Below the pieces are notes generated by a model. The model saw only the letters and a list, made by a program, of their open reading frames with translations. It did no database searches and was not told the origin of the DNA. A stretch of DNA of 64,000 bases from an uncultured Verrucomicrobiae bacterium. Lineage in GTDB: Bacteria > Verrucomicrobiota > Verrucomicrobiia > Limisphaerales > Palsa-1400. Where the stretch lies: contig OY969763.1 of assembly GCA_963702845.1 (NCBI GenBank), positions 1,056,001 through 1,120,000 on the forward strand, read 5' to 3'. Below are positions 1 to 17,950 of the stretch, piece by piece; within the stretch, counting starts at the first letter, position 1, and every line of letters begins with the position of its first letter. A program made the translations under genes and the position numbers.

Positions 1-1095
1 GAAGAGCCGGTCGGTGAAGAATCCAAGGTTCCGAAACTTTCGTTCGGCGGCGGTAATAAAATTTCGGCGCGCATTCTGGAAAATTTCACGCGTCTACTTT
101 CGAGTTTGCTCGCTGCCGGTGTCCCTTTAAGTCGCGCATTGGTCATTCTGCGCAAAGAAGCATCGACACCTCTCGCGGCGGAAAAATGGAAAGAAGTTCA
201 CGAATTGGTCATCGACGGTATGTCGCTGGCCGACGCCATGGGCCGGTCGCCTGATGTGTTTCCGCGAGTCTACGTGGCGATGGTGCAAGCGGGTGAGACG
301 GGGGGGTTCCTGGACCTCGTCCTTGCGCAGATTGCCGATTTTCAGTCGCGCGACAAGGAGCTGCGCGGGAAGGTGCTCGCCGCGTTAACGTATCCCATCA
401 TTCTCGTTCTCTTGTCGATTGTAGTGATTATCGTCCTGCTCGTCGTCTTCATTCCAAATTTCATGCCGGTATTCTCGAGTTTCGGTGGTGAACTTCCGTT
501 GCTCACAAAAATGATTTTAGCGGTAAGCAATGCGGTGCGGCATTACGGGTTGTTTGTCGGGGTGGGAATCGTCATGGCGGTGCTCCTCATTCGCAACTGG
601 TTCGTTTCGGAGAAAGGGCGCAGAACGTGGGAGGCAATGATCTTGCGCGCGCCCGTTGTTGGAAAACTTTCCGCGCAATTCGCCATGGCTCGGTTTTGTC
701 GAATGCTTGGGACATTGCTCGCTGCTGGCGTGCCGCTCGTGCAGTCGCTGAACGTCGCGCGCAAATCGATCGGCAATCAGGTGCTGGTTGATGCCGTTTC
801 CAATGCGATCGAACGCGTCAAGGAAGGCGGACAGCTTGCGCATAGTTTGAGCGATTGCCGCTATTTGTTTCCGGGCTCGGCATTGGAAATGATTTCCGTC
901 GCGGAAGAGAGCGGCAAACTCGACCAGGAATTGGTGCGTCTTGCAAACGTCACCGAGTCTGATCTTGATCGTAATATGAAAACGGCCGTTTCGCTCGTTG
1001 AGCCGCTTCTGCTGTTTTGTGTCGCAGCCCTGGTTGGGACCATCGTCATCGGAATGGTCGTTCCGATTTTCTCACTTCAACAATACATCAAATGA
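1..1095 (+). CDS. gspF: Type II secretion system F family inner-membrane platform protein (5'-partial)
   Basis: Two GspF repeats (LLAAGVPL...AGETGGFLD; LLAAGVPL...VAEESGKLD) with TM helices; frame open from the window edge; ATGA overlap with gspG. Confidence 0.93.
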   Translation, partial: EEPVGEESKVPKLSFGGGNKISARILENFTRLLSSLLAAGVPLSRALVILRKEASTPLAAEKWKEVHELVIDGMSLADAMGRSPDVFPRVYVAMVQAGETGGFLDLVLAQIADFQSRDKELRGKVLAALTYPIILVLLSIVVIIVLLVVFIPNFMPVFSSFGGELPLLTKMILAVSNAVRHYGLFVGVGIVMAVLLIRNWFVSEKGRRTWEAMILRAPVVGKLSAQFAMARFCRMLGTLLAAGVPLVQSLNVARKSIGNQVLVDAVSNAIERVKEGGQLAHSLSDCRYLFPGSALEMISVAEESGKLDQELVRLANVTESDLDRNMKTAVSLVEPLLLFCVAALVGTIVIGMVVPIFSLQQYIK

Positions 1096-1562
1096 AAATG
1101 CCAAACTTCAAACTCCAAAGTCTAAAGAAGCGTCAAACCTCAAAGAGCAAACTTCAAGCGCGTGGGTTCACGCTCATTGAACTGATGCTCGTTCTCGTTA
1201 TCTTGAGCATCCTTGCCGCCATCGTTGTCCCGAAGTTTTCAGGACGCACCGAACAGGCGCGCCAGACGGCCGCTCAGACTCAGATTTCGAGCTTCGGAAC
1301 AGCGCTCGATGCTTTCGAAGTCGATAATGGGTATTATCCCAAAGGTCGAAACGGTTTACAGGATCTGGTGCAGCAACCGCGCGAGGCTCAGAACTGGAAG
1401 GGACCTTACGTGAAGGACATCCCGAATGATCCGTGGCAACACCCGTACATTTATGAATGCCCCGGCAAGCACAATCCGTCGTCCTACGATTTGTCCTCGG
1501 CCGGCCCGGACGGTCGCACGGGCAGTGAAGACGACACCACCAATTGGCAGAATAAGAAGTAA
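1092..1562 (+). CDS. gspG: Type II secretion major pseudopilin GspG
   Basis: G|FTLIELMLV prepilin motif; 'WKGPY..IPNDPWQHPYIY..PG...YDLSSAGPDG' GspG C-domain; ATG at 1092 overlaps gspF stop. Confidence 0.95.
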   Translation: MKMPNFKLQSLKKRQTSKSKLQARGFTLIELMLVLVILSILAAIVVPKFSGRTEQARQTAAQTQISSFGTALDAFEVDNGYYPKGRNGLQDLVQQPREAQNWKGPYVKDIPNDPWQHPYIYECPGKHNPSSYDLSSAGPDGRTGSEDDTTNWQNKK

Positions 1563-1586
1563 TTGAAATTCGGAAACACAACGCGC

Positions 1587-2099
1587 ATGAACGGCAACGG
1601 TGCATTCACCTTCATCGAGTTAATCCTCGTGATGGTGCTTATGGCCGTCGTGCTCAGCCTTGTGTTCCCGTCGCTCAAAGGTTTTTTCCGCGCCCGTAAT
1701 CTCGATTCTGAAGCGCAGCGGTTTTTGGCCCTGACGCGTTATGGGCAGAGTCGGGCTATTTCCGAAGGTGTGCCGATCATTTTATGGATGGATCCGCAGG
1801 CGAAGTCGTATGGGCTAGAGGTGCAGGCCGGCTATGGCGTTAATGATACGAAGCAGCGGCAGTTTCGCCTCGATGAATCGTTGCAATTGCAGGCGCAGAT
1901 TCCAGTCGCGGGTTTAATGACTCAGTCCAATTTGTGGACGCAAGTTCGCAGAACGACGATTCGTCCGGAGATTCGTTTTCTGCCCGACGGATCGATCAGC
2001 GAGACCAGCCCCGACCGTATTTTAATCACCCAAGATAAAGACGACGCGTTGTCGATCACTGAGACAACGAACCATTTGCGGTATGAAATTCACCACTAA
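1587..2099 (+). CDS. Minor pseudopilin, GspH/FimT-like
   Basis: A|FTFIELILV N-methylation motif, 'RYGQSRAISEG', 'IRFLPDGS'; start may be 1563 (TTG) or 1587 (ATG). Confidence 0.8.
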   Translation: MNGNGAFTFIELILVMVLMAVVLSLVFPSLKGFFRARNLDSEAQRFLALTRYGQSRAISEGVPIILWMDPQAKSYGLEVQAGYGVNDTKQRQFRLDESLQLQAQIPVAGLMTQSNLWTQVRRTTIRPEIRFLPDGSISETSPDRILITQDKDDALSITETTNHLRYEIHH

Positions 2100-2472
2100 T
2101 AAACGGTCGAAAGCTGCACGATCCGCCTTCACGTTGATGGAGGTGCTGGCCGCGTTGTTGTTCATGGCAATTGTCATTCCGGTCGCGATTGAAGGCATTC
2201 GCATCGCGAGCCTCGCGGGTGAAGTTGGGCAGCGCAAAAAAATCGCTGCACGCATCGGCCAGAGCGCACTCGATGAAATGCGTTCCAACACTCAAACGCA
2301 GAACTCTGTTTCCAGCGGTCAGGTGCAGCAAGGCGCGCTGACTTATCAATATACGATTCGCACTGAGACGTGGCCCGAAGACGCAATGCGTTTAGCGACG
2401 GTCGATGTCGCATTTGCGGTGCAGGGCAGGAATTACGACGTGCAATTAAGCACGTTACTGGCGCAACAATGA
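2083..2472 (+). CDS. Minor pseudopilin, GspI/PilV-like
   Basis: A|FTLMEVLAAL motif, 129 aa, position in the operon. Confidence 0.8.
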   Translation: MKFTTNKRSKAARSAFTLMEVLAALLFMAIVIPVAIEGIRIASLAGEVGQRKKIAARIGQSALDEMRSNTQTQNSVSSGQVQQGALTYQYTIRTETWPEDAMRLATVDVAFAVQGRNYDVQLSTLLAQQ

Positions 2473-3101
2473 TTACGAGCAGCACAGTTGATTCGCGAAA
2501 GGCTTTCACCTTGTTGGAAGTCCTCATCGCTATTGCTGTTTCTGCCATTGTGCTAGCCGCGATCAACATGGTTTTCTACAGCGCTTTGCGCCTGCGCAAT
2601 CGGACGATGGCATCTTTGGACGAATCCGCGCCGATTGATCACGCTCTTGCTACAATCCGCCGTGACCTGGCGAACATCGTCGCGCCGAGCCGCACAAATT
2701 TTCCATTGCAGAGCACGATCATAAGCCAATCGCAGTTCGGTCAGATCACTCCTGATTTATATACTGCCACTGGCCAAATTGACGGACTGTCCCCTTGGGG
2801 AGATGTGCAAAAAATTTCGTACGGTCTCGCGCCTTCAGCCGACGGCATGTCACGCGATCTGATTCGAATCGTATCTCACAACCTTCTCGCCACGACAACC
2901 GAGATGCCGGAACAACAATGGCTCCTCGGCGGCGTTAGAAATATCGCTTTGCATTATTTCGACGGAGCGCAATGGGCTGATGTTTGGGACACAACCACCC
3001 AATCCAATTTACCGACGGCAATTAAAGTGGATCTGGATCTGACGAACAACTTGATGCACATGGTCGTCGCATTGGACACACAAGTGAGAACGAATCAATG
3101 A
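2469..3101 (+). CDS. gspJ: Minor pseudopilin GspJ
   Basis: A|FTLLEVLIAI motif; 'YFDGAQWADVWD...LPTAIKV' GspJ-type C-terminus; ATGA overlap at 2469. Confidence 0.82.
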   Translation: MITSSTVDSRKAFTLLEVLIAIAVSAIVLAAINMVFYSALRLRNRTMASLDESAPIDHALATIRRDLANIVAPSRTNFPLQSTIISQSQFGQITPDLYTATGQIDGLSPWGDVQKISYGLAPSADGMSRDLIRIVSHNLLATTTEMPEQQWLLGGVRNIALHYFDGAQWADVWDTTTQSNLPTAIKVDLDLTNNLMHMVVALDTQVRTNQ

Positions 3102-4432
3102 ACCTGCGCGTGTCCAATTTAGAAACCGGTTCGGTGCTCATCATCGTGCTTTGGATTGCGATTGGTCTTGTCTCGATCGCGCTCTACTTCGGGCACGCGA
3201 TGTCTTCTGAATTGCAGGCGTCTGCGAACACGGTGGCTGCGACCGAAGCCGAGATGGCAATCGAAGGCGCCGCTCGTTACGTCAGCAACGTCCTCGCGAA
3301 CGCGCAGCCCGGCTACATGCCACAAAACCTGCATTGCACGAATATCGCCATCGGCAACGCGCGGTTTTGGATAATCGGACGCGCAACCAACGACACGCAG
3401 ACGACATTGCAAGAACCGACGTGGGGCTTGGTCGATGAAGCGTCGAAGATCAATATCAACGCGACGAACATCACCTATAACGTTCTGACCAACGTGCCCA
3501 ATCTGACATCTGACCTCGCCGATGCCATTGTCGATTGGCGCAGTTCGACGTCATCGAACACTTCGATTTCGGCGAATTACTCGATGATGCAAACTTCGTC
3601 GTACACCTCCAAACACGCGCCGTTCAATACGGTTGATGAATTGCGTTTGATTTCGGGAATGGACCTTGCAACGTTGTATGGAGAAGACGCAAACCTCAAC
3701 GGGTTTTTGGATCCCAACGAAGATGATGCGGACAATCTACCGCCGAGCGATAATCACGACGGTCACCTTGACTCCGGGTTGCTGGAATTTTTAACGGTCT
3801 ACAGCCGTGAACCGAACACGGACACAAATGGTGACGTTCGTGTCAACATCAGAGACCGCGCGCAACAAACCAGGTTGCGCACATTGCTGCAGCAGCAAAG
3901 CATCCCGCAGAGCAAAATTAACTCGATGTTGTCGTGGGGACTGCAATCGAGTAACGTGCTCGAGTTCTACATTCGAAACGTGAACGTCAATCAATTGAGC
4001 GAAATGGATTTCGCTGCAATTGAGCCAAGTATTTCCGCCACCAGTAGCAATTTTCTTTACGGCTTGGTCAACATCAATACCGCGAGCGAGCAAGTGCTTG
4101 CCTGCATTCCGGGAATTGGATCAAACAACGCGCCCGCGATTGTTTCTTATCGCGAAAATAATCCGAGTCGAATCAATAGCATTGCGTGGCTTGCGCAAGC
4201 AATGAGCATCACGCCGACGACCGCGCGGACAATCGGGCAATACATCACCAGCCGTTCGTATCAGTTTACCGCCGACATCGCCGCGGTCGGTTCCTATGGC
4301 CGTGGATATCGGCGCGTGAAATTCGTTTTCGACACCAGTGAAGGCATGCCAAAAATTATTTATCGCCAGGACCTGACCCATCTCGGTTGGGCGCTCGGTC
4401 CGCAGGCGAGGGAGGTAACTTCGATCTTATGA
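3098..4432 (+). CDS. gspK: General secretion pathway protein GspK
   Basis: G|SVLIIVLW N-terminus, 'DEASKININ', 'ADAIVDWR', 'PFNTVDELRLISG', 'VNINTAS..VLACIPGIG'. Confidence 0.9.
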   Translation: MNLRVSNLETGSVLIIVLWIAIGLVSIALYFGHAMSSELQASANTVAATEAEMAIEGAARYVSNVLANAQPGYMPQNLHCTNIAIGNARFWIIGRATNDTQTTLQEPTWGLVDEASKININATNITYNVLTNVPNLTSDLADAIVDWRSSTSSNTSISANYSMMQTSSYTSKHAPFNTVDELRLISGMDLATLYGEDANLNGFLDPNEDDADNLPPSDNHDGHLDSGLLEFLTVYSREPNTDTNGDVRVNIRDRAQQTRLRTLLQQQSIPQSKINSMLSWGLQSSNVLEFYIRNVNVNQLSEMDFAAIEPSISATSSNFLYGLVNINTASEQVLACIPGIGSNNAPAIVSYRENNPSRINSIAWLAQAMSITPTTARTIGQYITSRSYQFTADIAAVGSYGRGYRRVKFVFDTSEGMPKIIYRQDLTHLGWALGPQAREVTSIL

Positions 4433-5853
4433 TTTCTTTCAAACCACAACGCCTCACATCAGTTTTAGGATTGGCGTTCGACGGCAGCCAAATCGAAGGC
4501 GTCGTCCTGCGCCGCACCAATGGTCACGTGGCCGTTCGTCAGACATTTTCGGCGGCACTGACGCTTGATCCCTTAACTGCGGACACAGAATTGGTTGGTC
4601 GCGAACTGCGCAATCACCTCGACAAAAACGAAATTCGTGAACGGCGATGTGTTGTTTGCCTGCCACTGAATTGGGTGGTGTCGCTTCACGTGAAGCTCCC
4701 GGATTTGCCGGAAGCGGACATCCCGAGTTTTCTGCAGATTGAAGCCGAGCGTGGGTTTCATGCCTCGCCCGAGTCTCTCGCGATTGTAAGTTCACGATTC
4801 ACCGCATCCGATGGCGAAAAATTCGCTACGATCATGGCGGTGTCGAGGCAGAACCTTGATCAACTGGAAACGGCGTTACGCGCGGCGCAGTTGAAACCGG
4901 TGAGTTTCTCGATTGGAACCGCGGCGCTGCAACCGGTGGGCAAGAGCGGCATCGCTTTATTGCCGGGCATCGGCAACGCTGGATTGCAGGTCAATTGCGA
5001 CGGCGGCATTGCGGCGCTACGCACGATTGACGGCATCATGGAAACCGAAGGCGCGCAAAAGCGTCTCTTCGCAGACTTACTCGCGCGCGAAATTCGCATC
5101 ACCCTCGGCCAATTGCCCGAGGCCGTTCGCAACGATCTCAAAGTCGTGCGCGTTTTTGGTAAATCGGAACTCGCCCAACGCATGGCTGCGGACATCACAC
5201 CGCGTTTGGCTGCGATGAATCTGCAAGTCGAACGCGTCGACCGCGCCGCCACGGAAAGCTGGGGTAAGGTTCTGCCGCCTGAGGCGGCTGCCTCGCCGGC
5301 GATGGCGTTAGGTGCGCGCTACCTAATGGAGCACGCGGCGCCGTTCGAGTTCATGCCGGCAAAAGTGAGCGCTCTCGAGCAACTCGCTAATCGTCTCAAG
5401 GGAGGCAAACTCGGCACGGTCGGTGCAACCGCCGGCGCTGTTGTGGTGATTGGAGTTCTCGCTGTTGCGGTCCACATGGCGATCGCGGCGCATTACGAAT
5501 CGCGCTGGTCTGCGATGGAGCCGAAGGTGAAAGATCTTCAGGAAATCCAAGACAATATCAAAAAGTACCGGCCATGGTTTGACGATTCCTGTCGCAGCCT
5601 GGTTGTCCTTCGCAAGCTGACGGAATCGTTTCCCGAAGACGGCGTTGTTTCGGCGAAGACCGTCGAAATCCGCGATCAGTCCACTGTCACGTGCTCGGGA
5701 ACAGCGCGCGACAAACAATCCTTTATCAAAATGTTCGATAAACTCAGCGCCTCGCAAGGTATCTCTGACTTGACGATCGACCAGGTGCAGGGCGAAGGAC
5801 CGGTCCAATTTACCCTTAACTTTCAATGGGACGGAGGTGCTCGTGCAAATTAA
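4429..5853 (+). CDS. GspL-like protein (PilM actin-like cytoplasmic domain + TM + PilN-like periplasmic domain)
   Basis: 'VLGLAFDG' PilM-like start, single TM near residue 340, ferredoxin-like C-domain ('VTCSGTA'); ATGA overlap. Confidence 0.7.
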   Translation: MISFKPQRLTSVLGLAFDGSQIEGVVLRRTNGHVAVRQTFSAALTLDPLTADTELVGRELRNHLDKNEIRERRCVVCLPLNWVVSLHVKLPDLPEADIPSFLQIEAERGFHASPESLAIVSSRFTASDGEKFATIMAVSRQNLDQLETALRAAQLKPVSFSIGTAALQPVGKSGIALLPGIGNAGLQVNCDGGIAALRTIDGIMETEGAQKRLFADLLAREIRITLGQLPEAVRNDLKVVRVFGKSELAQRMAADITPRLAAMNLQVERVDRAATESWGKVLPPEAAASPAMALGARYLMEHAAPFEFMPAKVSALEQLANRLKGGKLGTVGATAGAVVVIGVLAVAVHMAIAAHYESRWSAMEPKVKDLQEIQDNIKKYRPWFDDSCRSLVVLRKLTESFPEDGVVSAKTVEIRDQSTVTCSGTARDKQSFIKMFDKLSASQGISDLTIDQVQGEGPVQFTLNFQWDGGARAN

Positions 5854-6370
5854 GAACCGCCAACAAATCCTGATTTTCGTTGCCCTCGGCGCGCTGCTGT
5901 TTTTCGTCGGCGACCATTTAGTCTTAACGCCGTTGGTCAGCGGCTGGCAAACGCGCACCAAACGCATCGCTGAACTGAAGCAATTTATAAAACAGGGTGA
6001 AATGCTGCAGGATCGCGAGCAAAACATTCGCAGTCATTGGAGCCAAATGCGGACGAATACGTTGTCCTCTAATGCGTCAGTCGCTCAAAGTGAAATCTTC
6101 AAAGCGTTCGATAGCTGGTCGCAAGACAGCCGGATGAAAGTTGGCTCGATCAAACCGCAATGGAAGCATAACGACGAGTATACGATCCTCGAATGCCGCG
6201 TTAATGCGACCGGTGATATTCAGTCCCTTTCCAAATTCATTTACGACGCCGAAAAAGACCCGCTCGCCGTGAAGGTGGAATCGGTCGAGATCACGTCACG
6301 CGACAATAACGGCCAACAATTGAGCCTGGTGCTGCAAGTCAGCGGCTTGGTTTTGAATCAGACGCAATGA
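5843..6370 (+). CDS. GspM/PilO-like protein
   Basis: N-terminal TM, coiled coil and PilO-like C-domain; GGAGG RBS before GTG 5843. Confidence 0.68.
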   Translation: MQIKNRQQILIFVALGALLFFVGDHLVLTPLVSGWQTRTKRIAELKQFIKQGEMLQDREQNIRSHWSQMRTNTLSSNASVAQSEIFKAFDSWSQDSRMKVGSIKPQWKHNDEYTILECRVNATGDIQSLSKFIYDAEKDPLAVKVESVEITSRDNNGQQLSLVLQVSGLVLNQTQ

Positions 6371-7041
6371 CCAACAAGTTTAAAATTCCAGGTGTAAGGT
6401 TCAAAGTGCCGCTGCTTGTTTGCGGTTTTGGACTTCTTTTGGTTAGTGCACAAGCGGCGACGACGAATTCAGTCCAGACGACGAACTCGCCCACAGTGGT
6501 AGCCACTGCCAACACCAACACCGGAACGACTTTCCCATCGTTCAAAATTATCGCAGAGCGAAATATTTTCAGCGCAAACCGCTCCGGTCGCGTGTCTCGT
6601 GGCCCCACGACAAAGCCGACCAAAGTGGATACATTCACGCTCGTCGGAGTCGTCGACTATTCCAAGGGGATGTTCGCAATTTTCGACGGATCGAGCAGCG
6701 AATTGCGAAAAACATTGAAGATCGGCGATTCCCTCGCGGGCTTCACAATTACCGATGTCGACCTCGACCATGTCACTATCGCTAACACCAACGGTGCAGA
6801 CACGGTGTTGCATGTCGGCTCGCAGATGCGCCGGTTGGACGAGGGACCCTGGGCTCTCGGATCTGGTCCTGCGCCTCAAATCGCTAAAGCAAATAATTTA
6901 ACTTACGAAGCGGCCGATGCCGTACTGAGCGAGGACAAATCTGACAATACGAACGAAGCACCGCCGAGTGCGGAGGCAAACGATGTTCTCAAGAAACTTA
7001 TGCAAAAACGCAAAGCGGAGGTAAAAAATGAATCCGAATAA
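6367..7041 (+). CDS. Exported protein, probable GspC-like secretin-coupling component
   Basis: Hydrophobic N-terminus; 'RNIF..', 'TLVGVV...FAIFDG', 'LKIGDSLAGFTITDV' resemble the GspC/PilP HR domain; lies directly before the secretin. Confidence 0.55.
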   Translation: MTNKFKIPGVRFKVPLLVCGFGLLLVSAQAATTNSVQTTNSPTVVATANTNTGTTFPSFKIIAERNIFSANRSGRVSRGPTTKPTKVDTFTLVGVVDYSKGMFAIFDGSSSELRKTLKIGDSLAGFTITDVDLDHVTIANTNGADTVLHVGSQMRRLDEGPWALGSGPAPQIAKANNLTYEAADAVLSEDKSDNTNEAPPSAEANDVLKKLMQKRKAEVKNESE

Positions 7042-8590
7042 ATTCCTTATCATCATTTCCATTTTCGCCAGCACTCTGCTGTTGCGCGCCGACGATCAAC
7101 CAGCACCGGATAACCCGGCCGACGCACCGAAAGCAGACGCTGCAGCTGCCAAGCCGGACGCGAAGCCCGCGCCCGCCAAAACGGCCCCTGCGCGAAAACC
7201 AGCTCAACCACCGCAACTCACGGTGACGAGCGAAACTGATCGCGGTCTGCGCTTTAATTTCCGCGGCGTGCCGCTGGAAACGGTGCTGAACTACCTCAGC
7301 GATGCGGCCGGTTTCATCATTATTCCCGAGGCGGACCTGAAGGGAAAAGTCGACATCATCAGCACGCAGCCACTGAACAAGCAGGAAGCCGTCGATTTGC
7401 TCAACACCATTGTGAGTAAGAACGGTCTCGCCGCCATTCGGAATGGTCGCACACTGACCATCATCACGACCGATGAAGCGAAGAAGCGCGACATCCCTGT
7501 CATGAGCGGGTCCGAGCCTGACGACATTCCCAAGACCGACAATATCGTGACGCAGATTTTGCCGATGCACACGCTCAACGCGACGCAGTTAGCGAAAGAC
7601 CTTGGTTCGGTCGTCCCCTCATCGGCAACGCTCACTGCCAATGAAGCCGGCAACGCCCTCGTCATGACCGGCACACAAACGCAGATTCATCGTGTTGCGG
7701 AAATCATCAAGGCTCTGGATTCATCCAGTATTTCGTCAGTGCGCGTTTTCTCCCTGCGCTATGCCGATTCCAAAACGCTGGCCACCGTTATTAAAGATGT
7801 TTTCAGTTCTCCTGCTGAATCTTCCCGCGACGCCGTGCGTTCCTATTTCCGTATGCGTTTTGGAGGCGGAGGAGAGGAAGGCGGAGACAGCGGCAGGGGT
7901 TCGCGCGAATCAAGTTCAAGCGGGCGTGGCAGCAGCGGCGGCGGGAGCAAGGTCACTGCTGTCGCTGACGACTACAGTAATTCTGTTATCGTCAGCGCCC
8001 CGGAAGATCTAATGAGCACGATCGAAAAAGTCGTGAAGGAAGTGGATCAACCAGTCGAAGACGTCAGCAGCGTGCGCGTGTTCCGTTTGAAATTTGCCGA
8101 TGCCGGCGAAATGGCGGATCTGCTGAACAGCCTGTTTGGCGATGAAAGCAAAACCGACGAAAATAATCGCCCACGGTTTTCGTTCTTTACTCCTCCACAA
8201 TCAAGTTCGTCGTCCACTGCGAACGAAAGTTCGCGTGCGAAAAAGCAAGCTCGCGTTAGTGCCGTTGCAGATCGTCGCACCGGCTCAGTCGTTGTCACTG
8301 CCTCTAAACCAATGCTCGAGCAGATCGCGGAAATGATTAAAAACCTCGATGCAGACCCCGCGCGAAAGCAACAGGTCTACGTCTATTCGTTGGAAAACGC
8401 CGACGTCCAACAGGTCGAAGGTGTGTTGCATGACCTATTCCAAACCACCACGACTGCCAGCCAGCGCAGCACGCAACAACAAAACAGCGATGCTTTGACC
8501 CAACGTCAAACCAGCGCCGCTCAACAAACCACCACCGGATCGACCTTTAGCATCGGCACCGGCAACAACAGCGCTTTGCGCGGCCAATAA
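7028..8590 (+). CDS. Secretin N-terminal part (N0 + NolW-like N domains, no barrel)
   Basis: Signal peptide; 'LRFNFRGVPLETVL' N0; three complete 'V..L.yAd...D..N.v.v' N repeats plus a half repeat; no secretin core. Confidence 0.88.
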   Translation: MNPNKFLIIISIFASTLLLRADDQPAPDNPADAPKADAAAAKPDAKPAPAKTAPARKPAQPPQLTVTSETDRGLRFNFRGVPLETVLNYLSDAAGFIIIPEADLKGKVDIISTQPLNKQEAVDLLNTIVSKNGLAAIRNGRTLTIITTDEAKKRDIPVMSGSEPDDIPKTDNIVTQILPMHTLNATQLAKDLGSVVPSSATLTANEAGNALVMTGTQTQIHRVAEIIKALDSSSISSVRVFSLRYADSKTLATVIKDVFSSPAESSRDAVRSYFRMRFGGGGEEGGDSGRGSRESSSSGRGSSGGGSKVTAVADDYSNSVIVSAPEDLMSTIEKVVKEVDQPVEDVSSVRVFRLKFADAGEMADLLNSLFGDESKTDENNRPRFSFFTPPQSSSSSTANESSRAKKQARVSAVADRRTGSVVVTASKPMLEQIAEMIKNLDADPARKQQVYVYSLENADVQQVEGVLHDLFQTTTTASQRSTQQQNSDALTQRQTSAAQQTTTGSTFSIGTGNNSALRGQ

Positions 8591-8607
8591 TTAGAAAGAA
8601 AACCAAT

Positions 8608-9921
8608 ATGACCCCAAAACTGACCTTTCGTTTCTGGTTCATCCTGGCCGTGTGTTGCGCGACTGCCCCCGCCTTGTTCGCGCAACGTTCCAGCGGTTCC
8701 TCCGGTTCTTCCGGCTCCTCTGGTTACGGCGGATTCCGCGGTGGATCTTCCGGAAGTTCGTCAAGTTCCGGCTCCGGCGGTAGAACTACCACCGGCACGC
8801 GCGATTATCCGAACAGCACGATGATTGGCGACGCGCTGATCACCAGTGACCCGGAAACACGACGTCTCATCGTCATCACCGACGAACAAACGCACGAACA
8901 CATCAGCCAAGTCATTTCGAATCTCGACCGCCCCAAGCCGCAGGTGTTGATCAAAGTCGTGTTCGCCGAAGTCACCTATAATAACCAGCTCGATATCGGC
9001 CTTGAAGGAGGCTTTATCCACAACACCGGCTCGTTTTTGGGCGCGGTGACCAACTTCAATATTTTGAGTAATGGCACGCAAGTCCCGATTGTGTCGCAGC
9101 AGCCGGTCAACTCGGTTTTGGGCGGTTCGACGAGTTTTGGTTTGGCGCAATCGACCGGCATTCCCGGCGGCGCTTTTGCCACACTCACAGGACAGGATTA
9201 CATCGTCACGCTCAAAGCGGCTGCTCAACATGGTAAAGTGGAAATCCTTTCCCGGCCCTCGATTCTCGCGCGCAACAATCAAAAGGCGAGTATCGTCGTC
9301 GGCCAGGAAGTGCCACTGATTACTGGTGTGAATTACGACAGCTTCGGCAATCAGCGAAACGCCATCACCTACCAAAACGTTGGTATCATTTTGGACGTCA
9401 CGCCGTTCATCACGCCAGATGGCATGGTCGAAATGATTCTCAAACCGCAAATTTCATCGGTTGATCCCAATTCAACTGTTCAGATTGCCGGGGCGACGAC
9501 TAACAGCGGGGCCATCAATGCGCCTGTGATCGATATCCGCGCCGCGGACACTGTCGTCGTAACGCCCGACGGCAACACGGTTGTTATCGGTGGTCTCATG
9601 CAGAATAACAGGGCCAGCACGATTACGAAGGTTCCGCTGCTGGGCGACATCCCCGTCCTGGGAGCGCTGTTCAAACATAAAGTGACGTCAGATACCAAAA
9701 CAGAGTTGCTTATATTCCTGACCCCATATGTCGTGCAGACGCCGCACCAACTCGCGTTGATGTCCACGAGTGAAACGAGCCGCTTGCAACTTGCTCCGGA
9801 AGCGTTTAGTGAAAAGGAACTCAACCAATTCCTGGACAACGTTCAGCTCCATAGGAAGAAGGACGCCAAGGGAGCCCGACCGACCGGGTCGAATTCGAAC
9901 TCCCCTAAGAATCAGGATTAA
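8608..9921 (+). CDS. gspD: Secretin C-terminal part (GspD barrel domain) with its own signal peptide
   Basis: 'PQVLIKVVFAEV', 'ILSRPSILARNNQKASIVVGQEVP', 'KVPLLGDIPVLGALF', 'TELLIFLTPYVV'. Confidence 0.92.
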   Translation: MTPKLTFRFWFILAVCCATAPALFAQRSSGSSGSSGSSGYGGFRGGSSGSSSSSGSGGRTTTGTRDYPNSTMIGDALITSDPETRRLIVITDEQTHEHISQVISNLDRPKPQVLIKVVFAEVTYNNQLDIGLEGGFIHNTGSFLGAVTNFNILSNGTQVPIVSQQPVNSVLGGSTSFGLAQSTGIPGGAFATLTGQDYIVTLKAAAQHGKVEILSRPSILARNNQKASIVVGQEVPLITGVNYDSFGNQRNAITYQNVGIILDVTPFITPDGMVEMILKPQISSVDPNSTVQIAGATTNSGAINAPVIDIRAADTVVVTPDGNTVVIGGLMQNNRASTITKVPLLGDIPVLGALFKHKVTSDTKTELLIFLTPYVVQTPHQLALMSTSETSRLQLAPEAFSEKELNQFLDNVQLHRKKDAKGARPTGSNSNSPKNQD

Positions 9922-9935
9922 CGTATTAGTAAGCA

Positions 9936-11417
9936 ATGATCACTCGTCGCAATTGGCTCGTTTACGGAGTGCTCATTGCTGTCTGGATCATGCTCGTTGC
10001 GTGGCAGGTTGCCGAGCACATGCGCGTGCAACGGAATGCCCATCGTGCGTTGATTCATCGTGCCGAGGATATTTCCGATACTCTCGGTGTCGTCATGCGC
10101 TCGCAACGTCGTTTCGGCATCATCACTAAAGAACAATTGGAATCGGCGATGAAGGCTTTGGTCAAGCCCGGCGAAATCGATGCCATCGCGTTGCTCAACG
10201 CCTCCGGCGACGTCGTTGCTGCCGCTGGTGAAACAGTGGATGTCCAGAGCAAGGGTCTCACCTCGAGTGGCGAATACTGGGACAATCAAAATCTCGTCGT
10301 CATGAACCTGGTCGATCTCGGCACGAACATGACGCACGATCTCGAGTCCACGAACGTCACGCTTGTTCTGCCTCAAACCGAGCGCAGCCAATTGTTCAGT
10401 CGCACCAATCGACCACCATCACCGGAGGCCACAAATGAAGCGGGCCTTCCCACAACAAATCGTTTCGGTACTCGCGGCTCGCGCTGGACAAATGGTTTCC
10501 CCACATATTTTCGGAAACCCCCATGGATGAAAGATCCCGACTACAAAGCGCTGATCGAAAAACAAGGCGTGCATAGCTTTGCGTTGGTATTGTCGACACA
10601 AGCGATCACTGCCGCGGCCAACGACGATCTGTGGATGCGGCTGATGATCGTTGTTCTCGCTACGCTTGCAGCGGGCGGTGGTTTCATGGCCTGGCGCAAC
10701 GTCGCAAAAACTTCTGAACTTCAAATCCGTCTTGTCCGCGCGAGTGAGTTGAATTCGCACCTCAAGGAAATGAACCTCGCTGCCGCCGGCCTCGCGCATG
10801 AAACTCGAAATCCGCTCAATATCATTCGCGGACTCGCCCAGTTGATTTGCAAACAGGAAGATGTCTCACCGGAGGTTGCCCGGAAAACCCGCGACATCAT
10901 CAACGAAGCTGATCGGTTGACCGGGCAGCTCAATGAATTCATCAATTACTCACGCCCTCGTGAGGTGCGCCGAACCGCTGTTGACGTGCAATTCGTTGCT
11001 TCCGAAGTCGTGCGCGCGCTCAACTACGACATCGAAGAAAAGAAGATCATGCTGCAAGTTCCATCTGAGCCGTTGAAAATCCAGGCCGACGAACAACTCC
11101 TGCGCCAGGCTTTATTTAACCTGGTGCTGAACGCTATTCAGGCAGCCGATATCGGCGGAACGATTGATTTACGTTGTGGCAAGACTTCGCCGACCGATGC
11201 TTTCATCGAGATCCGCGATAACGGCCATGGCGTTGCCCCCGAAAATCGAGATGAAATTTTCAAACCATATTTTACCACGAACGAAAAAGGCACTGGCCTT
11301 GGCCTCGCCGTAGTTCAACAAATTGTCCTCGCGCACGGCTGGGAAATTGTCTGTCTGCCGAACGAACCAAAAGGCGCGATTTTGCGCATCGACCATGTTA
11401 AACTAGCTGCTGCATAA
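9936..11417 (+). CDS. Membrane sensor histidine kinase (ZraS/PilS-like)
   Basis: Two TMs, H-box 'AAGLAHETRNPL', N-box 'NLVLNAIQA', G boxes 'DNGHG', 'GTGLGL'. Confidence 0.93.
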   Translation: MITRRNWLVYGVLIAVWIMLVAWQVAEHMRVQRNAHRALIHRAEDISDTLGVVMRSQRRFGIITKEQLESAMKALVKPGEIDAIALLNASGDVVAAAGETVDVQSKGLTSSGEYWDNQNLVVMNLVDLGTNMTHDLESTNVTLVLPQTERSQLFSRTNRPPSPEATNEAGLPTTNRFGTRGSRWTNGFPTYFRKPPWMKDPDYKALIEKQGVHSFALVLSTQAITAAANDDLWMRLMIVVLATLAAGGGFMAWRNVAKTSELQIRLVRASELNSHLKEMNLAAAGLAHETRNPLNIIRGLAQLICKQEDVSPEVARKTRDIINEADRLTGQLNEFINYSRPREVRRTAVDVQFVASEVVRALNYDIEEKKIMLQVPSEPLKIQADEQLLRQALFNLVLNAIQAADIGGTIDLRCGKTSPTDAFIEIRDNGHGVAPENRDEIFKPYFTTNEKGTGLGLAVVQQIVLAHGWEIVCLPNEPKGAILRIDHVKLAAA

Positions 11418-11479: not shown

Positions 11480-12853
11480 TTGAATCAATCGAGTCCAAAT
11501 ATTGAATCTGCCAAACCTCGTGTCCTCATCGTCGATGATGATGCCAGCCAACGCAGCTTGCTTGATTCATTTTTAGGCGGGCAGGGTTTCGATACGATCG
11601 CGGTTGAATCTGGCGAGCGTGCCCTCGATGTCCTGCGCAAAGGTGGGGTGGACATGATGGTTTCCGACGTGCGCATGCCCGGTATATCCGGTCTCGAGAC
11701 GCTGCGCCTTGCTCGTCAGGAACACGCGCGCTTACCCGTTCTACTCGTCACAGCTTTTGCCGATATTCGTCAGGCGGTCGACGCCATGCGCGATGGCGCC
11801 GTCGATTATTTGGGCAAACCCATTGATCTCGACGAACTCCTCGCGTCAGTCCGGCACGCGACTGGTCTGGCGGAAAACGCGCCGCGCACTTTTAACGACT
11901 CACGAGAACTCCCGGCACAAGTCGTCGCGCAGAGTCCGCTCATGCAAGCGGTTTTTCGCGACATCTCGCTCGTCGCACCTTCCGAGAGCCGTGTTTTGAT
12001 TACTGGCGAAAGTGGCGTCGGCAAGGAAGTTATCGCCGACGTCATTCATCTTTGGAGCAAACGCGCCGATGGTCCGCTCGTTAAAGTAAACTGCGCCGCC
12101 ATTCCCGAAACGCTTTTGGAAAGTGAATTGTTTGGTCACGAAAAAGGCGCGTTTACCGGCGCGACCGCCCAGCGCATCGGCCGTTTCGAACAGGCCAACA
12201 ACGGGACGATCATGCTCGATGAAATAGCGGAAATGTCGCCGGGTTTGCAGGCCAAGCTTTTGCGCGTCACTCAAAACGGGTCATTTCAACGCATCGGTTC
12301 CAACACCGAAATTCGTTCCAATGCCCGAATTCTCGCTGCCAGCAATCGTAACCTCGAAGAAGAAGTTAAAAAGAACCGCTTCCGCGAAGATCTCTTTTAT
12401 CGCCTGAACGTCGTCGAGATGAACATCCCGCCATTGCGTGAACGTCCTGAGGACATCCTCGCATTGGCTCAAAAATTTCTCGACGAGCTAACCCAGGGAC
12501 GCGCGCGCTTGTCCGCTGCCGTAGGTGAACTGCTGCAAAACTATTCCTGGCCGGGCAACGTCCGTGAAGTGCGCAATGCCATGGAACGCGCTGCGTTATT
12601 ATCGCGGGGCGAAATGATTTTGCCCGAGCATTTGCCGATCCGCGTTCGAACCTCTTCGGAGCCCGCGCCTGCTCCGGTTATCGACGAACAAAAACTCGGC
12701 GATATTGAGCGTAGCGCGTTGCTGCTGGCGTTGAAGAAGCACGATTACAACCGCACCGAAACTGCCAAAGCCCTCGGTATCAGCCGGCGCGCGCTCATCT
12801 ACAAGCTCCAGCGCTTGCGCGAATTGGGCTATCAGATAGACTCTCCAGCGTGA
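11480..12853 (+). CDS. Sigma-54-dependent response regulator (NtrC family: receiver-AAA+-Fis HTH)
   Basis: Receiver 'VLIVDDD..SDVRMP', 'GESGVGKE', 'ESELFGHEKGAFTGA', HTH 'NRTETAKALGISRRAL'. Confidence 0.96.
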   Translation: MNQSSPNIESAKPRVLIVDDDASQRSLLDSFLGGQGFDTIAVESGERALDVLRKGGVDMMVSDVRMPGISGLETLRLARQEHARLPVLLVTAFADIRQAVDAMRDGAVDYLGKPIDLDELLASVRHATGLAENAPRTFNDSRELPAQVVAQSPLMQAVFRDISLVAPSESRVLITGESGVGKEVIADVIHLWSKRADGPLVKVNCAAIPETLLESELFGHEKGAFTGATAQRIGRFEQANNGTIMLDEIAEMSPGLQAKLLRVTQNGSFQRIGSNTEIRSNARILAASNRNLEEEVKKNRFREDLFYRLNVVEMNIPPLRERPEDILALAQKFLDELTQGRARLSAAVGELLQNYSWPGNVREVRNAMERAALLSRGEMILPEHLPIRVRTSSEPAPAPVIDEQKLGDIERSALLLALKKHDYNRTETAKALGISRRALIYKLQRLRELGYQIDSPA

Positions 12854-15663
12854 CCTCGCTTCAGCGGACCGCACTTAAGAATGTAAAATGCGAACTAGCG
12901 TCAGATGACCTGACGCGAACACTTTACGCTTCCGACGCCTCACTCCACCAAATTATGCCAAGCGCCGTCGCCTTCCCGCGAACGGCGCAAGAGGCGTCAG
13001 CTGCTGTCAAAGCCGCGGTTGATTCCGGCCTCTCGATTACACCGCGCGGCGCGGGAACCGGGCTCGTTGGTGGTGCGATTGGTGACGGACTCATTATCGA
13101 TTTCGGCAAATACAATCGCCAGATCTCAAACATCGATCTCGAGCGCGGCACGGTCCGCGTCGGCACTGGCGTTGTCCTTGATCAACTCAATGCCGCGCTA
13201 AAGCCGCACGGGTTTTGTTTTGGCCCGGACGTCGCCACGAGCGCGCGCGCGACAATCGGTGGGATGATCGCGAACAATTCCTCTGGTTCGCATTGTCCGT
13301 ATTACGGCTGCACCGCCGACCATGTGCGTTCAGTAGAAGTCGTGCTGGCCGACGGCAGCATCGAAACGCTCGGTATCAACGGCACTGATTCGCAGCGCAA
13401 CTACCAACTCAAAAAAATGGTGTTCGCGCGCAAGCCGGAGATTGAAGCGAACATGCCCGGCGATCTCCTCAAGCGCTGGCCGGGTTACAGCGTCGAACGC
13501 TTTCTGCGCGACCCGGCGCAATACAATCATTTGCTCGCCGGCAGCGAAGGCACGCTCGCGGCGATGGTTTCTGCCGAGCTGAAAATCGTTCCCATTCCCA
13601 AACGCAAAACTCTTGGCGTCGTGTTCTACGCGACGGTCGAAGAAGCAATGCAAGGCACAGTCGATCTGCTCGACCTCAAACCAGCGGCGATCGAACACGT
13701 CGACGACGTCCTCGCCGATCAAACCAAAGGCCAACTTGCTTTCAAAGCCGCGCGCGATTTACTCGAGCTTGACACCAAACCTTGCAAAGCGATGTTGTTC
13801 GTCGATTTCTTTGATGAGACCGGTGAGCAACTCGCCGAGTTCTCAAAGCGGAAACTTGGTTTACGCACATTGTCGGTCAGCGATCCTGCAACGATGGCTC
13901 TCGCCTGGAACATGCGCAAAGCCGGACTCTCGCTCGTTACCGGCTGCAAAGGCGCTTCGAAACCAGTCACGACAATCGAAGACGCCGCCGTTCGGCCACA
14001 ACAACTCCCTGCATATTACAAGGCCGTTCGAAGCATCCTCGAAAGCAAAAACCTTCACGCCTGCTATTACGGTCACGCTGCTTCGGGACTGTTGCACATT
14101 CGGCCTGTGCTCGATCTGCGCCAACCGGATGACCTGAAAAAATTTCGTGAAGTCTCGGACGAAGTCGCCGCCGTCGTGAAGCAGTTCAAAGGCTCGTTCT
14201 GCTCCGAACACGGCGTCGGCATGGCTCGCACCGAATACATGCCGATGCTCATGGGCAATGAGCTGATGCAGTTGTTCGCCGATATCAAAAATGTTTTCGA
14301 TCCGAAGAACGTTTTCAATCCCGGCAAGATCATCCCGAACGGTCGCTTCAAAATCGACAAAGACCTCCGCGCCCAAATCGACATCACCTTGCCGTTCGAG
14401 CCCGTCCTCGCTTTCGCGGCGAAAGACGAAGGCTTCATCGGCAACCTTGAACAATGCAACGGCTGCGGTGGTTGCCGCAAAGCGCCACCGACGATGTGTC
14501 CGACTTATGTCGCCACTGGCGAAGAAATCATGTCCACACGCGGCCGCGCCAACACCATTCGCGCCGCCGTCAGCCAACGCGGTAATCCCGAAGCGCTCAT
14601 ATCCGAAGAACTCGACGCCGCCCTCGCCAATTGTCTGGCCTGCAAAGCGTGCACGACCGAGTGCCCGTCGAACGTGAACCTGGCGCTGCTCAAAGCCGAA
14701 TTGCTCCACGCGCGCCACGAGAAATTCGGCATGACCTTGCGCGAACGCATTTTCAGCGCCGCCGATCGTCTCGGTCAGATGGGTTGCATCACGCCCGGCA
14801 TTGCCAATGCGATGCTTAAGTCGAAGCCGTTGCGCAAAGCGATGGAGAAATTCCTCGGCGTCGCCGCAAACCGTCCTTTGCCCGAATACACCAGCGAACG
14901 ATTCGACAAATGGTTCAATTCACGCGCAAAGAAAAACGGCAAGAACGGCAAACGTGGTCGCATCATTTTGTGGGACGATACCTTTGTGCGTTATCACGAG
15001 CCGCACATCGGCAAAGCTGCCGTCCAGGTTTTGGAAGCCGCTGGTTTCGAAGTCGCGCTCGTGGAAAATCGCCAATGCTGCGGACGTCCATCGTTTAGCC
15101 AGGGGGACCTGCATCGCGCCTCGGCGCTCGGTAAGCACAATCTCGAGATTCTCGCCGACGGCACCGAGCCGATCCTTTTCCTCGAACCGTCCTGCTACTC
15201 GATGTTCGCGGAGGACTACATCGAACTGAAACTGCCGCACGCCAGGAAAGTCAAAGCGCGTTGTTTCATTTTCGAGCATTTCATCGATCAATTGCTCACG
15301 CGCGAACCCGACGCGATCAAATTTAAAGCCACCTCGAACCCAATCGCGATCCACGCGCATTGCCACGCCAAATCGCTGCTCAATCCAGCGTTCATGAAGA
15401 AGCTGGCCGAACGCGTGCCGCAAGCCAAAGCAACATTGCTGGAGACCGGTTGCTGCGGTATGGCCGGTGGTTTCGGCGCGACTGCTTCGAAATATGAATT
15501 GTCGGTGAAAGTTGCCGAGCCGCTCATTGCGAAGCTCGCCGCTCAGCCGCAAGGCGCGACCGTCATTGCTTCCGGCACCAGTTGCCGGCATCAGATCGAT
15601 CACTTCAGCAGCCATAGTCATCCGCTGCATTTCGCCGAATATCTGGCAGCTCAACTCGCCTGA
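12850..15663 (+). CDS. FAD-linked oxidase / 4Fe-4S / CCG fusion oxidoreductase (YdiJ/GlcD-GlcF-like 2-hydroxyacid dehydrogenase)
   Basis: 'PRGAGTGLVG', 'ATIGGMIANNSSG', 'SEHGVG', CNGCGGC and CLACKACTTECP clusters, two CCG motifs. Confidence 0.9.
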   Translation: MTSLQRTALKNVKCELASDDLTRTLYASDASLHQIMPSAVAFPRTAQEASAAVKAAVDSGLSITPRGAGTGLVGGAIGDGLIIDFGKYNRQISNIDLERGTVRVGTGVVLDQLNAALKPHGFCFGPDVATSARATIGGMIANNSSGSHCPYYGCTADHVRSVEVVLADGSIETLGINGTDSQRNYQLKKMVFARKPEIEANMPGDLLKRWPGYSVERFLRDPAQYNHLLAGSEGTLAAMVSAELKIVPIPKRKTLGVVFYATVEEAMQGTVDLLDLKPAAIEHVDDVLADQTKGQLAFKAARDLLELDTKPCKAMLFVDFFDETGEQLAEFSKRKLGLRTLSVSDPATMALAWNMRKAGLSLVTGCKGASKPVTTIEDAAVRPQQLPAYYKAVRSILESKNLHACYYGHAASGLLHIRPVLDLRQPDDLKKFREVSDEVAAVVKQFKGSFCSEHGVGMARTEYMPMLMGNELMQLFADIKNVFDPKNVFNPGKIIPNGRFKIDKDLRAQIDITLPFEPVLAFAAKDEGFIGNLEQCNGCGGCRKAPPTMCPTYVATGEEIMSTRGRANTIRAAVSQRGNPEALISEELDAALANCLACKACTTECPSNVNLALLKAELLHARHEKFGMTLRERIFSAADRLGQMGCITPGIANAMLKSKPLRKAMEKFLGVAANRPLPEYTSERFDKWFNSRAKKNGKNGKRGRIILWDDTFVRYHEPHIGKAAVQVLEAAGFEVALVENRQCCGRPSFSQGDLHRASALGKHNLEILADGTEPILFLEPSCYSMFAEDYIELKLPHARKVKARCFIFEHFIDQLLTREPDAIKFKATSNPIAIHAHCHAKSLLNPAFMKKLAERVPQAKATLLETGCCGMAGGFGATASKYELSVKVAEPLIAKLAAQPQGATVIASGTSCRHQIDHFSSHSHPLHFAEYLAAQLA

Positions 15664-15666
15664 GTC

Positions 15667-15939
15667 ATCGGCCCCAACACACCGGTTCTTGTCACCAACG
15701 CTTCCGGCGTTGAGGCCAACGCGCTCATTGTTGGGTCCAACATTCCATCCGTTGAGGCCAACGGCGATCGCGTTGGGTGCAACGATGCATGCGTTGGCTT
15801 CAACGCCCCTTCTGTTGGGCCCAACCGCAACGGCGTTGGCGCCCACGGTGGCTCCGTTAGGCCCAACGACGGCTCCGTTGGCCCCGACGGCGGTACCGGT
15901 GGTCCCAACGGTCGCAGTGTTGGTTGCAGCAAAAATGGC
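15667..15939. repeat. Array of 13 units with 21-bp period: palindromic 12-mer GTTG-N4-CAAC + variable 9-mer
   Basis: Boxes start at 15667, 15688, 15709 ... 15919, each exactly 21 bp apart. Confidence 0.9.
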
Positions 15940-15962
15940 GCAACTCCCTTAATTGCAAGTTG

Positions 15963-16068: not shown

Positions 16069-17899
16069 ATGGATAGTATTGGTGTTCACCGCCCACGCAA
16101 CGTGGGTTGGAAGCGGGCGGCTGGCTTACTTTATGGTGACTGGGGCACGAGCAAGGCCTATGTCATCGGCGCGGCCTTTTACGCAACCGGCTACGCTTCG
16201 TTGCCGATGATCCTCGCGGTCTGCGCGCTGACCGGACTTGTCGGATACAATTATCGCATCATTTGCCGCCATTTTCCCGACGGCGGCGGCGTTTACTCGG
16301 CCGCGCGAAGCCAGAGCCGCCTGCTTGCCGTTGTCGGCGCGTTGATGCTTGTGGCCGACCTGACCGTCACCGCTTCGCTGAGCGGATTCCAAGCGTTCAC
16401 GTATCTGCTGAGCCATTTTCACCCCAGCAACGGCTGGCTTGTTTTCGCCACCATCGGTCTCATCTGTGGCGTCGGGGCTGTCAACGCTTACGGTCCGAAA
16501 CACTCCGGCAGCATGGCCGTTGTGCTTTGCGTGCCGATGGTGATCGTGGTCGTCGGTATCCTCGCGATGAGCGCGCCGCATTTGACGACCGTGCACCTTG
16601 AGAAAATGCAGGGCACCTTCAGGGAACACTGGACCGGGTTCGTGGCGATCATTCTGGCGCTGAGCGGTGTCGAATCCATTGCCAACATGACTGGGGTGAT
16701 GACGCTGGACAAGGGTTCAACGATGGACCACCCGCGAGTCGACAAAACTTCGGGCAAAGCCATTTTGTGGGTCGCGATCGAAGTCTGCATCGGCACGTCG
16801 CTGCTCGCCTGGGCCATGCTTTCGTTGCCGCAAACCTACAAAGCAGAACTGCACGATCGTTGGGAAGATATGCTGAACGTCCTCGCCGAAAAATACGGCG
16901 AGATGACGTTTCACAGCGCAGCGGCTGGACAGGTTTGCGGCTATATTACCGCAATTATCGTCGGCTTGCTGTTGCTCAGCGCTGTAAATACTGCGATCAG
17001 CGCTTTGATCGGCTTGTTCTATATGATGGCGCGCGACGGCGAAATGCCGCGACCTTTGTTGCGCCTCAATTCCCACGGCGTGCCGATTCTCCCGCTGGTT
17101 ATCGCCACTGCGCTGCCAATCCTGGTGTTGATTGCGTCGCCCGACACGATGTCACTGATGGAGCTTTATGCTATCGGTGTCGTCGGCGCGATCATGCTTA
17201 ACCTCGGTTCTTGCATCCTGAACAAGAAACTCGGGCTCAATTGGCGTGAAGTTTCTGTGATGAGCGTTACGTTTGTCATGTTGCTTGCAGTTGAATTCAC
17301 ACTCGCCAAAACGAAGCCCAACGCACTTTTCTTCATTGTCTGCATTCTTGTGGTCGGTCTTACCTTGCGTTCATGGTCGCAACGCCGCGCTGGATTGCGT
17401 ACCGTCACTGTCGCTGAACACGTCGCTGCAGCTGTTTCTCCGGAGCGAAGTGCGTGAATTCAAACTCAACCTTGTTCCTGGCCAAACTATTCTCGTCGCC
17501 GCCCGCGGCTTGACGCCTGTCTTCCGTTACGCGATGGAAGAAGCCCAACTGCGCCAGGGCACGCTTTACGTCCTTTACGTCAAAGAACTCGCCGTTAACT
17601 TGCCCGGCCCATTACCCACCGGCGAACGTCCCCGTTGGCAGGACGACAAACACGCTGCCGAGATCATGTATGGTATGGTCGATGCCGGGCAAGAAGAACA
17701 GCGTCACCGTCGTGCCGCTTTACACCATCAGCGAAAACCCGCGACCACGATTCTCGACATGTCCGCAACCCTCGGCGTCGACATCCTCGCCCTCGGCTCC
17801 GCCCATCGCAATCGTCTGGTCTCACTATTGAAAGGCGACGTCGTCACCGAAGTTGCCAAGAACCTTCCGGAGAACATTCAATTAGTAATTTACAGTTAA
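16069..17899 (+). CDS. APC-superfamily permease with C-terminal universal-stress-protein domain (frameshift at ~17450, compensating shifts at ~17690-17740)
   Basis: About 12 TMs, 'LYGDWGTSKAY', 'GGGVYS', 'LSGVESIAN'; downstream frame gives USP 'GVDILALGSAHRNRLVSLLKGDV'. Confidence 0.85.
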
Positions 17900-17950
17900 A
17901 GTTTGGAGCTTGGCGGTTGAAGTCTCTCTGAAGTTTGGAATTTGAAGTTC
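17899..17950. repeat. Heptamer tandem-repeat element between convergent genes
   Basis: aagtttg gagcttg gcggttg ... aagtttg gaatttg aagttc. Confidence 0.6.

Follow-up and report, generated by a model that had tools for sequence, protein, structure and literature searches.

We analysed a 64,000-nucleotide (nt) stretch of DNA, hereafter the window, from an uncultured Verrucomicrobiae bacterium (assembly GCA_963702845.1, contig OY969763.1, positions 1,056,001 to 1,120,000 of the forward strand), in which GspD, the secretin of a type II secretion system (T2SS), is spread over two adjacent genes. The first gene, carrying the N-module, was given the working name D1 and the second, carrying half an N domain and the barrel, was named D2. 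As the initial annotation had described, the two open reading frames (ORFs) are separated by 17 nt and lie in different frames. Their features are listed below by window position, with amino acid (aa) numbers referring to the respective protein.

7028..8590, + strand: D1, exported N-module of the secretin, 520 aa, TAA stop (from the ORF, Pfam and AlphaFold2)
7028..7090, + strand: signal-peptide-like start of D1, aa 1-21, judged by eye
7256..7450, + strand: N0 domain (PF21305), aa 77-141
7538..7723, + strand: first complete N domain of D1, aa 171-232
7730..8050, + strand: second complete N domain of D1, aa 235-341
about aa 262-305 of D1: Gly/Ser loop inside the second N domain, the second cut point of three-piece relatives
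8063..8353, + strand: third complete N domain of D1, aa 346-442, the cis control for coupling
8363..8449, + strand: donor half of the barrel-proximal N domain, strand 1 and helix 1, aa 446-474 of D1
8492..8527, + strand: ALxxR helix in the D1 tail, aa 489-500, with invariant Arg493
8591..8607, + strand: intergenic gap of 17 nt with a purine-rich stretch ahead of the ATG
8608..9921, + strand: D2, half N domain and secretin barrel, 437 aa, ATG start, in another frame than D1
8608..8682, + strand: signal-peptide-like segment of D2, aa 1-25, followed by Gln26, of signal peptidase I type by rule
8686..8796, + strand: disordered Gly/Ser head of mature D2 (AlphaFold2, composition)
8797..8835, + strand: conserved RxY...G-x-A segment ahead of the acceptor half, aa 64-76 of D2
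8836..8928, + strand: acceptor half of the barrel-proximal N domain, strands 2 and 3 and helix 2, aa 77-107 of D2
8941..9738, + strand: secretin barrel domain, aa 112-377 of D2

The Pfam scan of D1 recovered N0 and three Secretin_N stretches, and in D2 the Secretin_N match was confined to positions 35-69 of the model's 69 (aa 78-112) and was followed by Secretin (aa 205-377), so that the Secretin_N halves and the Secretin match fall on the two ORFs as had been claimed. Against the GspD model TIGR02517 the two halves scored 222 and 253 bits, each under the cut-off of 351. The AlphaFold2 model of D1 alone contained N0 and three complete N domains, with no strand assigned at 447-456 and helices at 460-474 and 489-500. 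In the model of D2 alone, a strand-strand-helix unit (77-81, 86-90, 93-107) preceded the barrel, aa 23-68 had a predicted local distance difference test (pLDDT) score below 50 and C-terminal helices were placed at 379-409. Pfam and AlphaFold2 therefore agree on three complete repeats plus a half repeat in D1 and the missing half plus the barrel in D2, and each chain modelled alone is left with an unpaired half domain. The best structural matches of D2 were PulD (6hcg), E. coli GspD (5wq7), ExeD and XcpQ (5wln), and its start aligned in 5wq7 with the loop and second half of N3 of E. coli GspD. By this alignment, the counterpart of the split domain in canonical GspD is N3.

Export signals were assessed by a rule combining charge, hydrophobicity and an AxA motif. 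This rule was satisfied by 145 of 154 distinct D2 starts, and D1 starts in most relatives were likewise signal-peptide-like, so the claim that each half carries its own signal peptide holds by rule for D2 and by eye for D1. Glutamine follows the predicted cleavage site (window 8683-8685) in 127 of the 154 D2 proteins. An N-terminal glutamine is able to cyclise to pyroglutamate, for example in exported proteins of Bacteroidota. The tails on both sides of the cut (window 8507-8587 and 8686-8796) are Gly/Ser-rich with less than 0.5% Asp/Glu, and FG or GF was common in them (98 of 129 D1 tails, 74 of 137 D2 heads); 30 such tails could line the channel. The end of D1 had been annotated as a Thr/Gln tail, a description to which its ALxxR motif is added here, in which Arg493 is present in 175 of 175 pairs.

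The close set of relatives comprised 71 loci with both genes, giving 67 distinct pairs (our own included), and two further close loci lacking gene 1 at a contig end. Their records are mostly Verrucomicrobiota, several being Limisphaerales or Pedosphaera, and the same cut, new start and signal-like segment were present in two other genomes of the genus. None of the 67 distinct pairs was fused. A profile search across the order hit 145 of 201 genomes, from which 120 loci were taken, among them the seven with the longest gene-1 frames and 100 others. All seven of the longest were split and none was fused, and the 100 others included 92 split loci, no fused one and eight without gene 2. The relatives thus keep the split point and show no continuous ORF among the close homologues, in line with the initial annotation. 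Outside the order, the split type was detected in two of 250 phylum genomes at E 1e-60, and one database protein was assigned to Sumerlaeota, the only one of 20 proteins for which cluster look-ups gave a taxon. Three longer phylum-level matches (G319, G253, G406) were rejected as a different single-chain secretin of 32% identity. Loci labelled Akkermansia sit deep among Limisphaerales-type sequences in the tree and their labels were treated as unreliable; no confirmed case came from Akkermansia, Omnitrophota or Lentisphaerota.

When the search was limited to long proteins (7996 candidates scored), the best were of 766-2185 aa and 35-44% identical to D2, those with names being Phycisphaerae. 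These Phycisphaerae-type GspD proteins (P0008, P0055 and others) are the nearest intact relatives and differ from the pair in being one chain, with a Gly/Ser/Asn loop of about 94 aa where the pair is cut (median 94 aa, measured in 95 of 120). A quick tree of 150 barrel-side rows placed 116 split-type rows on one side of a branch with a Shimodaira-Hasegawa-like approximate likelihood ratio (SH-aLRT) of 100, and 32 single chains, one giant single-chain locus and the protein P0220 on the other. As the split rows form one side of the tree and the single chains carry a loop at the cut, one ancient cut in an already long loop is the simplest reading. Related genomes also encode giant secretins, single chains of about 4000-5500 aa in which the N repeats are numerous (L143 in G025:C16, P0178, P0222). 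Two loci, L145 (G016) and L224 (G115), have extra frameshifts within D1 or D2 which are probably assembly errors.

Across 175 pairs, the core positions were hydrophobic in 161-175 pairs for the donor half and 165-175 for the acceptor half, a strictness about equal to that of the intact neighbouring domain, and Arg493 (175), Asp81 (174) and Asp92 (173) were near-invariant. Mean-field coupling between donor and acceptor gave 16 position pairs per 1000 with z>3, as compared to 19 per 1000 for the intact cis neighbour domain and 4.5-9.2 for six wrong blocks. The donor-acceptor coupling exceeded that of the wrong blocks in 25 of 25 overlapping subsamples, and the strongest pair of the whole matrix, Tyr451-Glu93, lies across the two genes. 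The coupling result is suggestive of the halves meeting. Since both halves keep their core and co-vary like an intact domain, and the cut itself is conserved, the barrel-proximal N domain is likely rebuilt in trans from two chains, as first proposed, with support that is indirect.

Taken together, we consider it very probable that the pair is a functional, naturally two-chain T2SS secretin derived from an ancestral GspD cut in the loop of its barrel-proximal N domain. Several points weigh against this. The coupling alignment is shallow (effective number 119), the subsamples drawn from it depend on one another, the cis and trans maps correlate weakly in register (smoothed rho 0.14-0.18), and an earlier mutual information analysis on 89 pairs was noisy. 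The evidence for contact consists of conservation, co-variation and single-chain models, the export signals of both chains rest on rule or eye, and nine of the 154 D2 starts fail the rule, in some cases because the wrong start was picked or D2 is frameshifted. In addition, the 150-row tree is a quick search and the genomes of relatives include metagenome-assembled genome (MAG) records.

In the proposed course of events, the ancestral GspD would have been cut inside a long disordered loop and its second half would have acquired an export signal of its own. Both chains would come from one sigma-54 transcript and be exported separately by Sec. In the periplasm, the last strand and helix of D1 would pack on the strand-strand-helix of D2 and so complete a single N domain, and the ALxxR helix would act as a further latch. 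The 1:1 pair would then oligomerise as a normal ring, in which D2 forms the pore and D1 the N0-N ring stack meeting the GspC-like protein, and the joint would probably be permanent after ring assembly. In InvG, as described in sections of PMC6155069, the loop between helix 1 and strand 2 of N3 is variable and partly a packing helix, and N3 forms a hydrophobic ring on which secretin oligomerisation is founded; N3 is also counted in the conserved C-module of the secretin in a portion of PMC10550240. Because the N3 ring belongs to the pore core and founds oligomerisation, we infer an obligate 1:1 pair and not the detachable vestibule that the initial annotation had suggested; taking away the D1 chain would unfold the shared domain.

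It was also considered that D2 makes the pore alone, its half domain being completed by its own RxY segment or by neighbours, with D1 acting as a looser adaptor to the inner-membrane platform. This would agree with the conserved segment at aa 64-76 of D2 ahead of the half domain (Tyr67 in 156 and Gly74 in 169 of 175 pairs), and it has a precedent in RhcC1, proposed in part of PMC3459982 as a linker to RhcC2. However, the segment has no secondary structure in the model and offers no equivalent of helix 1, and the half domain of D1 retains a full hydrophobic core and co-varies more strongly with the D2 half than with the beginning of the barrel, which makes such an arrangement unlikely.

The pair lies in a gsp-type operon with the following further features.

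G000:C1:1053368-1053382 (within L259:3279-3383): sigma-54 -24/-12 motif upstream of the operon's first gene
L259:3468-4019 = G000:C1:1053467-1054018: small exported helical protein, the operon's first gene, upstream of the window
106..1095, + strand: gspF, which begins upstream of the window (PF00482, two stretches, E 5e-57)
1017..1562, + strand: gspG, major pseudopilin (TIGR01710, 139 bits against a cut-off of 89)
1563..4432, + strand: gspH, gspI, gspJ and gspK, minor pseudopilins (Pfam; H, J and K over the cut-off, I at 22 bits against 25)
4387..7041, + strand: GspL/PilM-PilN-like, GspM/PilO-like and GspC-like genes, with weak family matches, assigned by position
9936..11417, + strand: sensor histidine kinase, best NCBIfam match ZraS, below the cut-off
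11480..12853, + strand: sigma-54-dependent response regulator, AtoC/NtrC/ZraR-like, below the cut-offs of these

The gene order is thus the small exported protein and gspE (both upstream of the window), gspF to gspK, the L-, M- and C-like genes, D1, D2, the kinase and the sigma-54 activator. The gspE candidate directly upstream of the window matched PF00437 at E 5e-140 and scored 611 bits with TIGR02533 (cut-off 630) and 566 bits with PilB (cut-off 676). The weak matches at the C, L and M positions were GspC_delta (E 0.001), GspM (E 3e-7), PilM (E 0.001) and PilN (E 0.025). One PF06750 match over the cut-off, representing the prepilin peptidase, lies elsewhere in the genome. The genome has five secretin-domain matches, and those of split type are one D1 and one D2. 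No pilotin gene was noticed in the operon, where no search aimed at pilotins was made.

The small exported protein was found in 65 of 101 genomes of the order, and gspE shared its locus in 29 of the 30 cases checked. It has no Pfam or NCBIfam family, and its automatic Atlas name, Spy/CpxP (0.94), serves as a lead only. The sigma-54 motif was first spotted by eye and then tested on 30 upstream regions: in 22 of the 30 genomes it lay 92-156 nt ahead of the first gene's aligned start, against two of 30 control stretches and a shuffle mean of 1.1. It is preceded by two TGCGCA-N5-TGCGC palindromes, which are likely activator sites. The TGCGCA 6-mer was present in 24-25 of the 30 upstream regions, a count made without a shuffle control, and a search for the palindrome at one locus with two mismatches gave eight hits where 6.8 were expected, which is not above chance. 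The operon may be autoregulated by its own activator. The arrangement resembles ZraP-ZraSR, as outlined in part of PMC4987338, in having a small exported helical protein first, a sigma-54 promoter and a kinase with a sigma-54 activator. However, Zra has no secretion genes between these parts, the kinase and regulator scored below the family levels (ZraS 173 against 479 bits, ZraR 393 against 760) and the small protein falls in no family, so the likeness is an analogy only.

Such regulation bears on a further reading, in which the cut is a regulatory device that lets the two-component system of the operon take off or replace the N-module of assembled pores. Besides the sigma-54 motif, it would fit with the kinase gene that immediately follows D2 in 43 of 67 pairs (by motif), and with the eight genomes in which a full-length D1, still ending in the donor half, lies outside any gsp operon. 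In seven of these eight the operon D1 was present and only one split-type D2 was found; in G052, D2 is fragmentary and the operon D1 was not located. The genome studied here has instead a single D1, with both genes in one operon. Moreover, the donor half of the stand-alone copies is less conserved (mean identity to orthologues 43%, against 56% among operon copies), which speaks against docking, and exchange after assembly would presumably mean unfolding a domain that is the ring core. We regard this reading as quite improbable. The exchangeable vestibule of the initial annotation accordingly fails for this genome, with its one copy of each gene, and exchange of the N-module is possible in the eight relatives.

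According to the tree, stand-alone D1 copies arose at least three times and are often nearest to the operon copy of their own genome or family. They are intact and roughly 35-80% identical per domain to their operon partner, and in G092 (81%) and G062 (78%) the donor half is the best-kept domain, which speaks for docking. Two of the copies adjoin a copy of the operon's small first gene, and that of G004 has a consensus sigma-54 motif directly before a plausible start; motifs upstream of the copies in G092 and G189 were rejected as they lie inside a coding region. Single cases may be due to MAG contamination. The neighbours of stand-alone copies (L248, L249, L250, L253) include a CotH/EF-hand protein, a dioxygenase-like protein, OmpR-type two-component genes and an NHL-repeat protein. 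It is conceivable, though doubtful, that the secretin is a modular kit in which N domains are joined by half-domain complementation from several exported pieces, and separately regulated stand-alone N-modules assemble into rings together with the one barrel chain, which would provide a single pore with alternative vestibules facing substrates or partners.

Production of a single polypeptide by frameshifting or stop-codon read-through is barely credible. About a third of relatives (52 of 154) have D1 and D2 in register, but the other two thirds would need +1 or -1 shifts, all three stop codons are used (TGA 32, TAA 28 and TAG 7 among the 67 pairs) and the signal-peptide-like segment is conserved mid-way. 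The close pairs have gaps of -4 to 65 nt with frames 20/20/27, the gaps of the wider set run from -4 to 841 nt with every frame represented, and 335-805 nt separate two intact genes at L161, L169 and L171. An assembly error or recent pseudogene break has an equally negligible chance, for although frameshift-like breaks lie nearby in the same assembly (17950-19243, 24779) and none of the contigs from four of seven public sequencing runs bridges 8560-8700, the same cut is shared by the other genomes of the genus and by members of the whole order. With no public contig bridging the junction, it is these relatives that argue against an artefact. The public runs matching this DNA had shares of 0.05-0.10, with no RNA run among those listed.

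The nearby breaks concern a major facilitator superfamily (MFS) transporter in overlapping frames (17950-19243), an O-antigen-ligase-like gene (19593-21020) and a truncated 3-deoxy-D-arabino-heptulosonate 7-phosphate (DAHP) synthase (24779-25750), and this assembly may carry indel errors. At window 16069-17899, an amino-acid permease overlaps a Usp-domain frame, and the two may be a single gene that a frameshift has interrupted. A small ORF at window 15660-15950 has short repeated GPT-type peptide units and no Pfam match, and is possibly a DNA repeat.

The two-chain form has itself been cut further. Three-piece secretins were found in 12 genomes of five families (11 of the 13 short-frame candidates plus G029), in which the loop in the second N domain of D1 carries a further cut and the middle gene begins with its own signal-like segment followed by the second half of that domain; G194 and G046 were rejected as contig ends. 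These forms need three changes on both the D2 tree and the tree of the N-terminal part of D1, on well-supported branches, and a single clade for them was rejected (approximately unbiased (AU) test, p 1.6e-29; 40 rows chosen from 150). The second cut would thus have at least three separate origins, although one gain followed by many re-fusions is formally possible. Two proteins of the single-chain-type group, P0220 and P0156, have a signal-like start and half an N domain; in the tree, P0220 falls within the single chains, and P0156, which is outside the tree, is cut one domain earlier, which suggests separate cuts in the Phycisphaerae-type group. As the second cuts and these two proteins share the half-domain anatomy, the mid-domain loop is, by comparison of sequences, a recurrent cut site. 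Such a loop would generally tolerate cutting, and therefore some lineages would have been cut again. D1 variants with one N domain fewer (L031-L033, L035-L040, L043, L044, L102, L105, L109, L130) occur in more than one part of the tree.

Compared to single-chain GspD (PulD, E. coli GspD, XcpQ; TIGR02517), the pair shares the N0, N repeats and barrel along with a surrounding gsp-type operon. It differs in being spread over two genes cut in the N3 equivalent with a signal-like start on each, and in having one N repeat more, long Gly/Ser loops and no lipobox (a lipobox-like motif in only one of 154 D2 starts). A single-chain GspD with an intact barrel-proximal N domain was found neither here nor in the close relatives examined. 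The pair would function as a T2SS secretin, departing only in the single-chain feature. The N-terminal part and barrel are likewise on separate genes in RhcC1/RhcC2 of the rhizobial type III secretion system; in the relevant parts of PMC3574062 and PMC3459982, these two genes have distinct origins and are not adjacent, and RhcC2 derives from a Tad locus and has a BON domain. In contrast, both halves here look like one ancestral GspD of a T2SS cut within a domain: D2 had no BON match and was closest to GspD, and both halves matched the same single-chain proteins. For a mid-domain cut, as for multi-piece forms, the nearest precedent is the mitochondrial T2SS, whose GspD, according to portions of PMC8134430, consists of several polypeptides (GspD with GspDN1-3), of which GspDN2 represents the C-terminal and GspDN3 the N-terminal half of an N domain. 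Both systems have half N domains located on separate chains. The mitochondrial one is eukaryotic, without N0 and GspC, and its halves are not assignable to N1-N3 (same portions of PMC8134430), whereas the present pair lies in a bacterial operon, keeps N0 and has its acceptor half on the barrel chain. No paper on a split GspD in Verrucomicrobiota was found in the open-access literature (supplements aside), and Verrucomicrobia has no occurrence in the main text of PMC6668835. Split secretins are already known from the rhizobial and mitochondrial systems, and the bacterial T2SS two-chain case differs from both.

Automatic annotation will label such genes as partial or broken. The pair gives the half-domain pieces of the mitochondrial T2SS a bacterial counterpart and is a natural two-part system for questions of T2SS assembly, such as whether pore and N-module assemble separately. 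It also offers a handle on the 15:12 mismatch of the secretin with its inner-membrane partner, named as an open question in part of PMC10550240. The barrel-proximal N ring has been treated as the conserved core of the secretin, and here it would be built from two chains. If this is true, the two-chain ring and the repeated cuts at equivalent loops would signify that secretin N domains fold by complementation.

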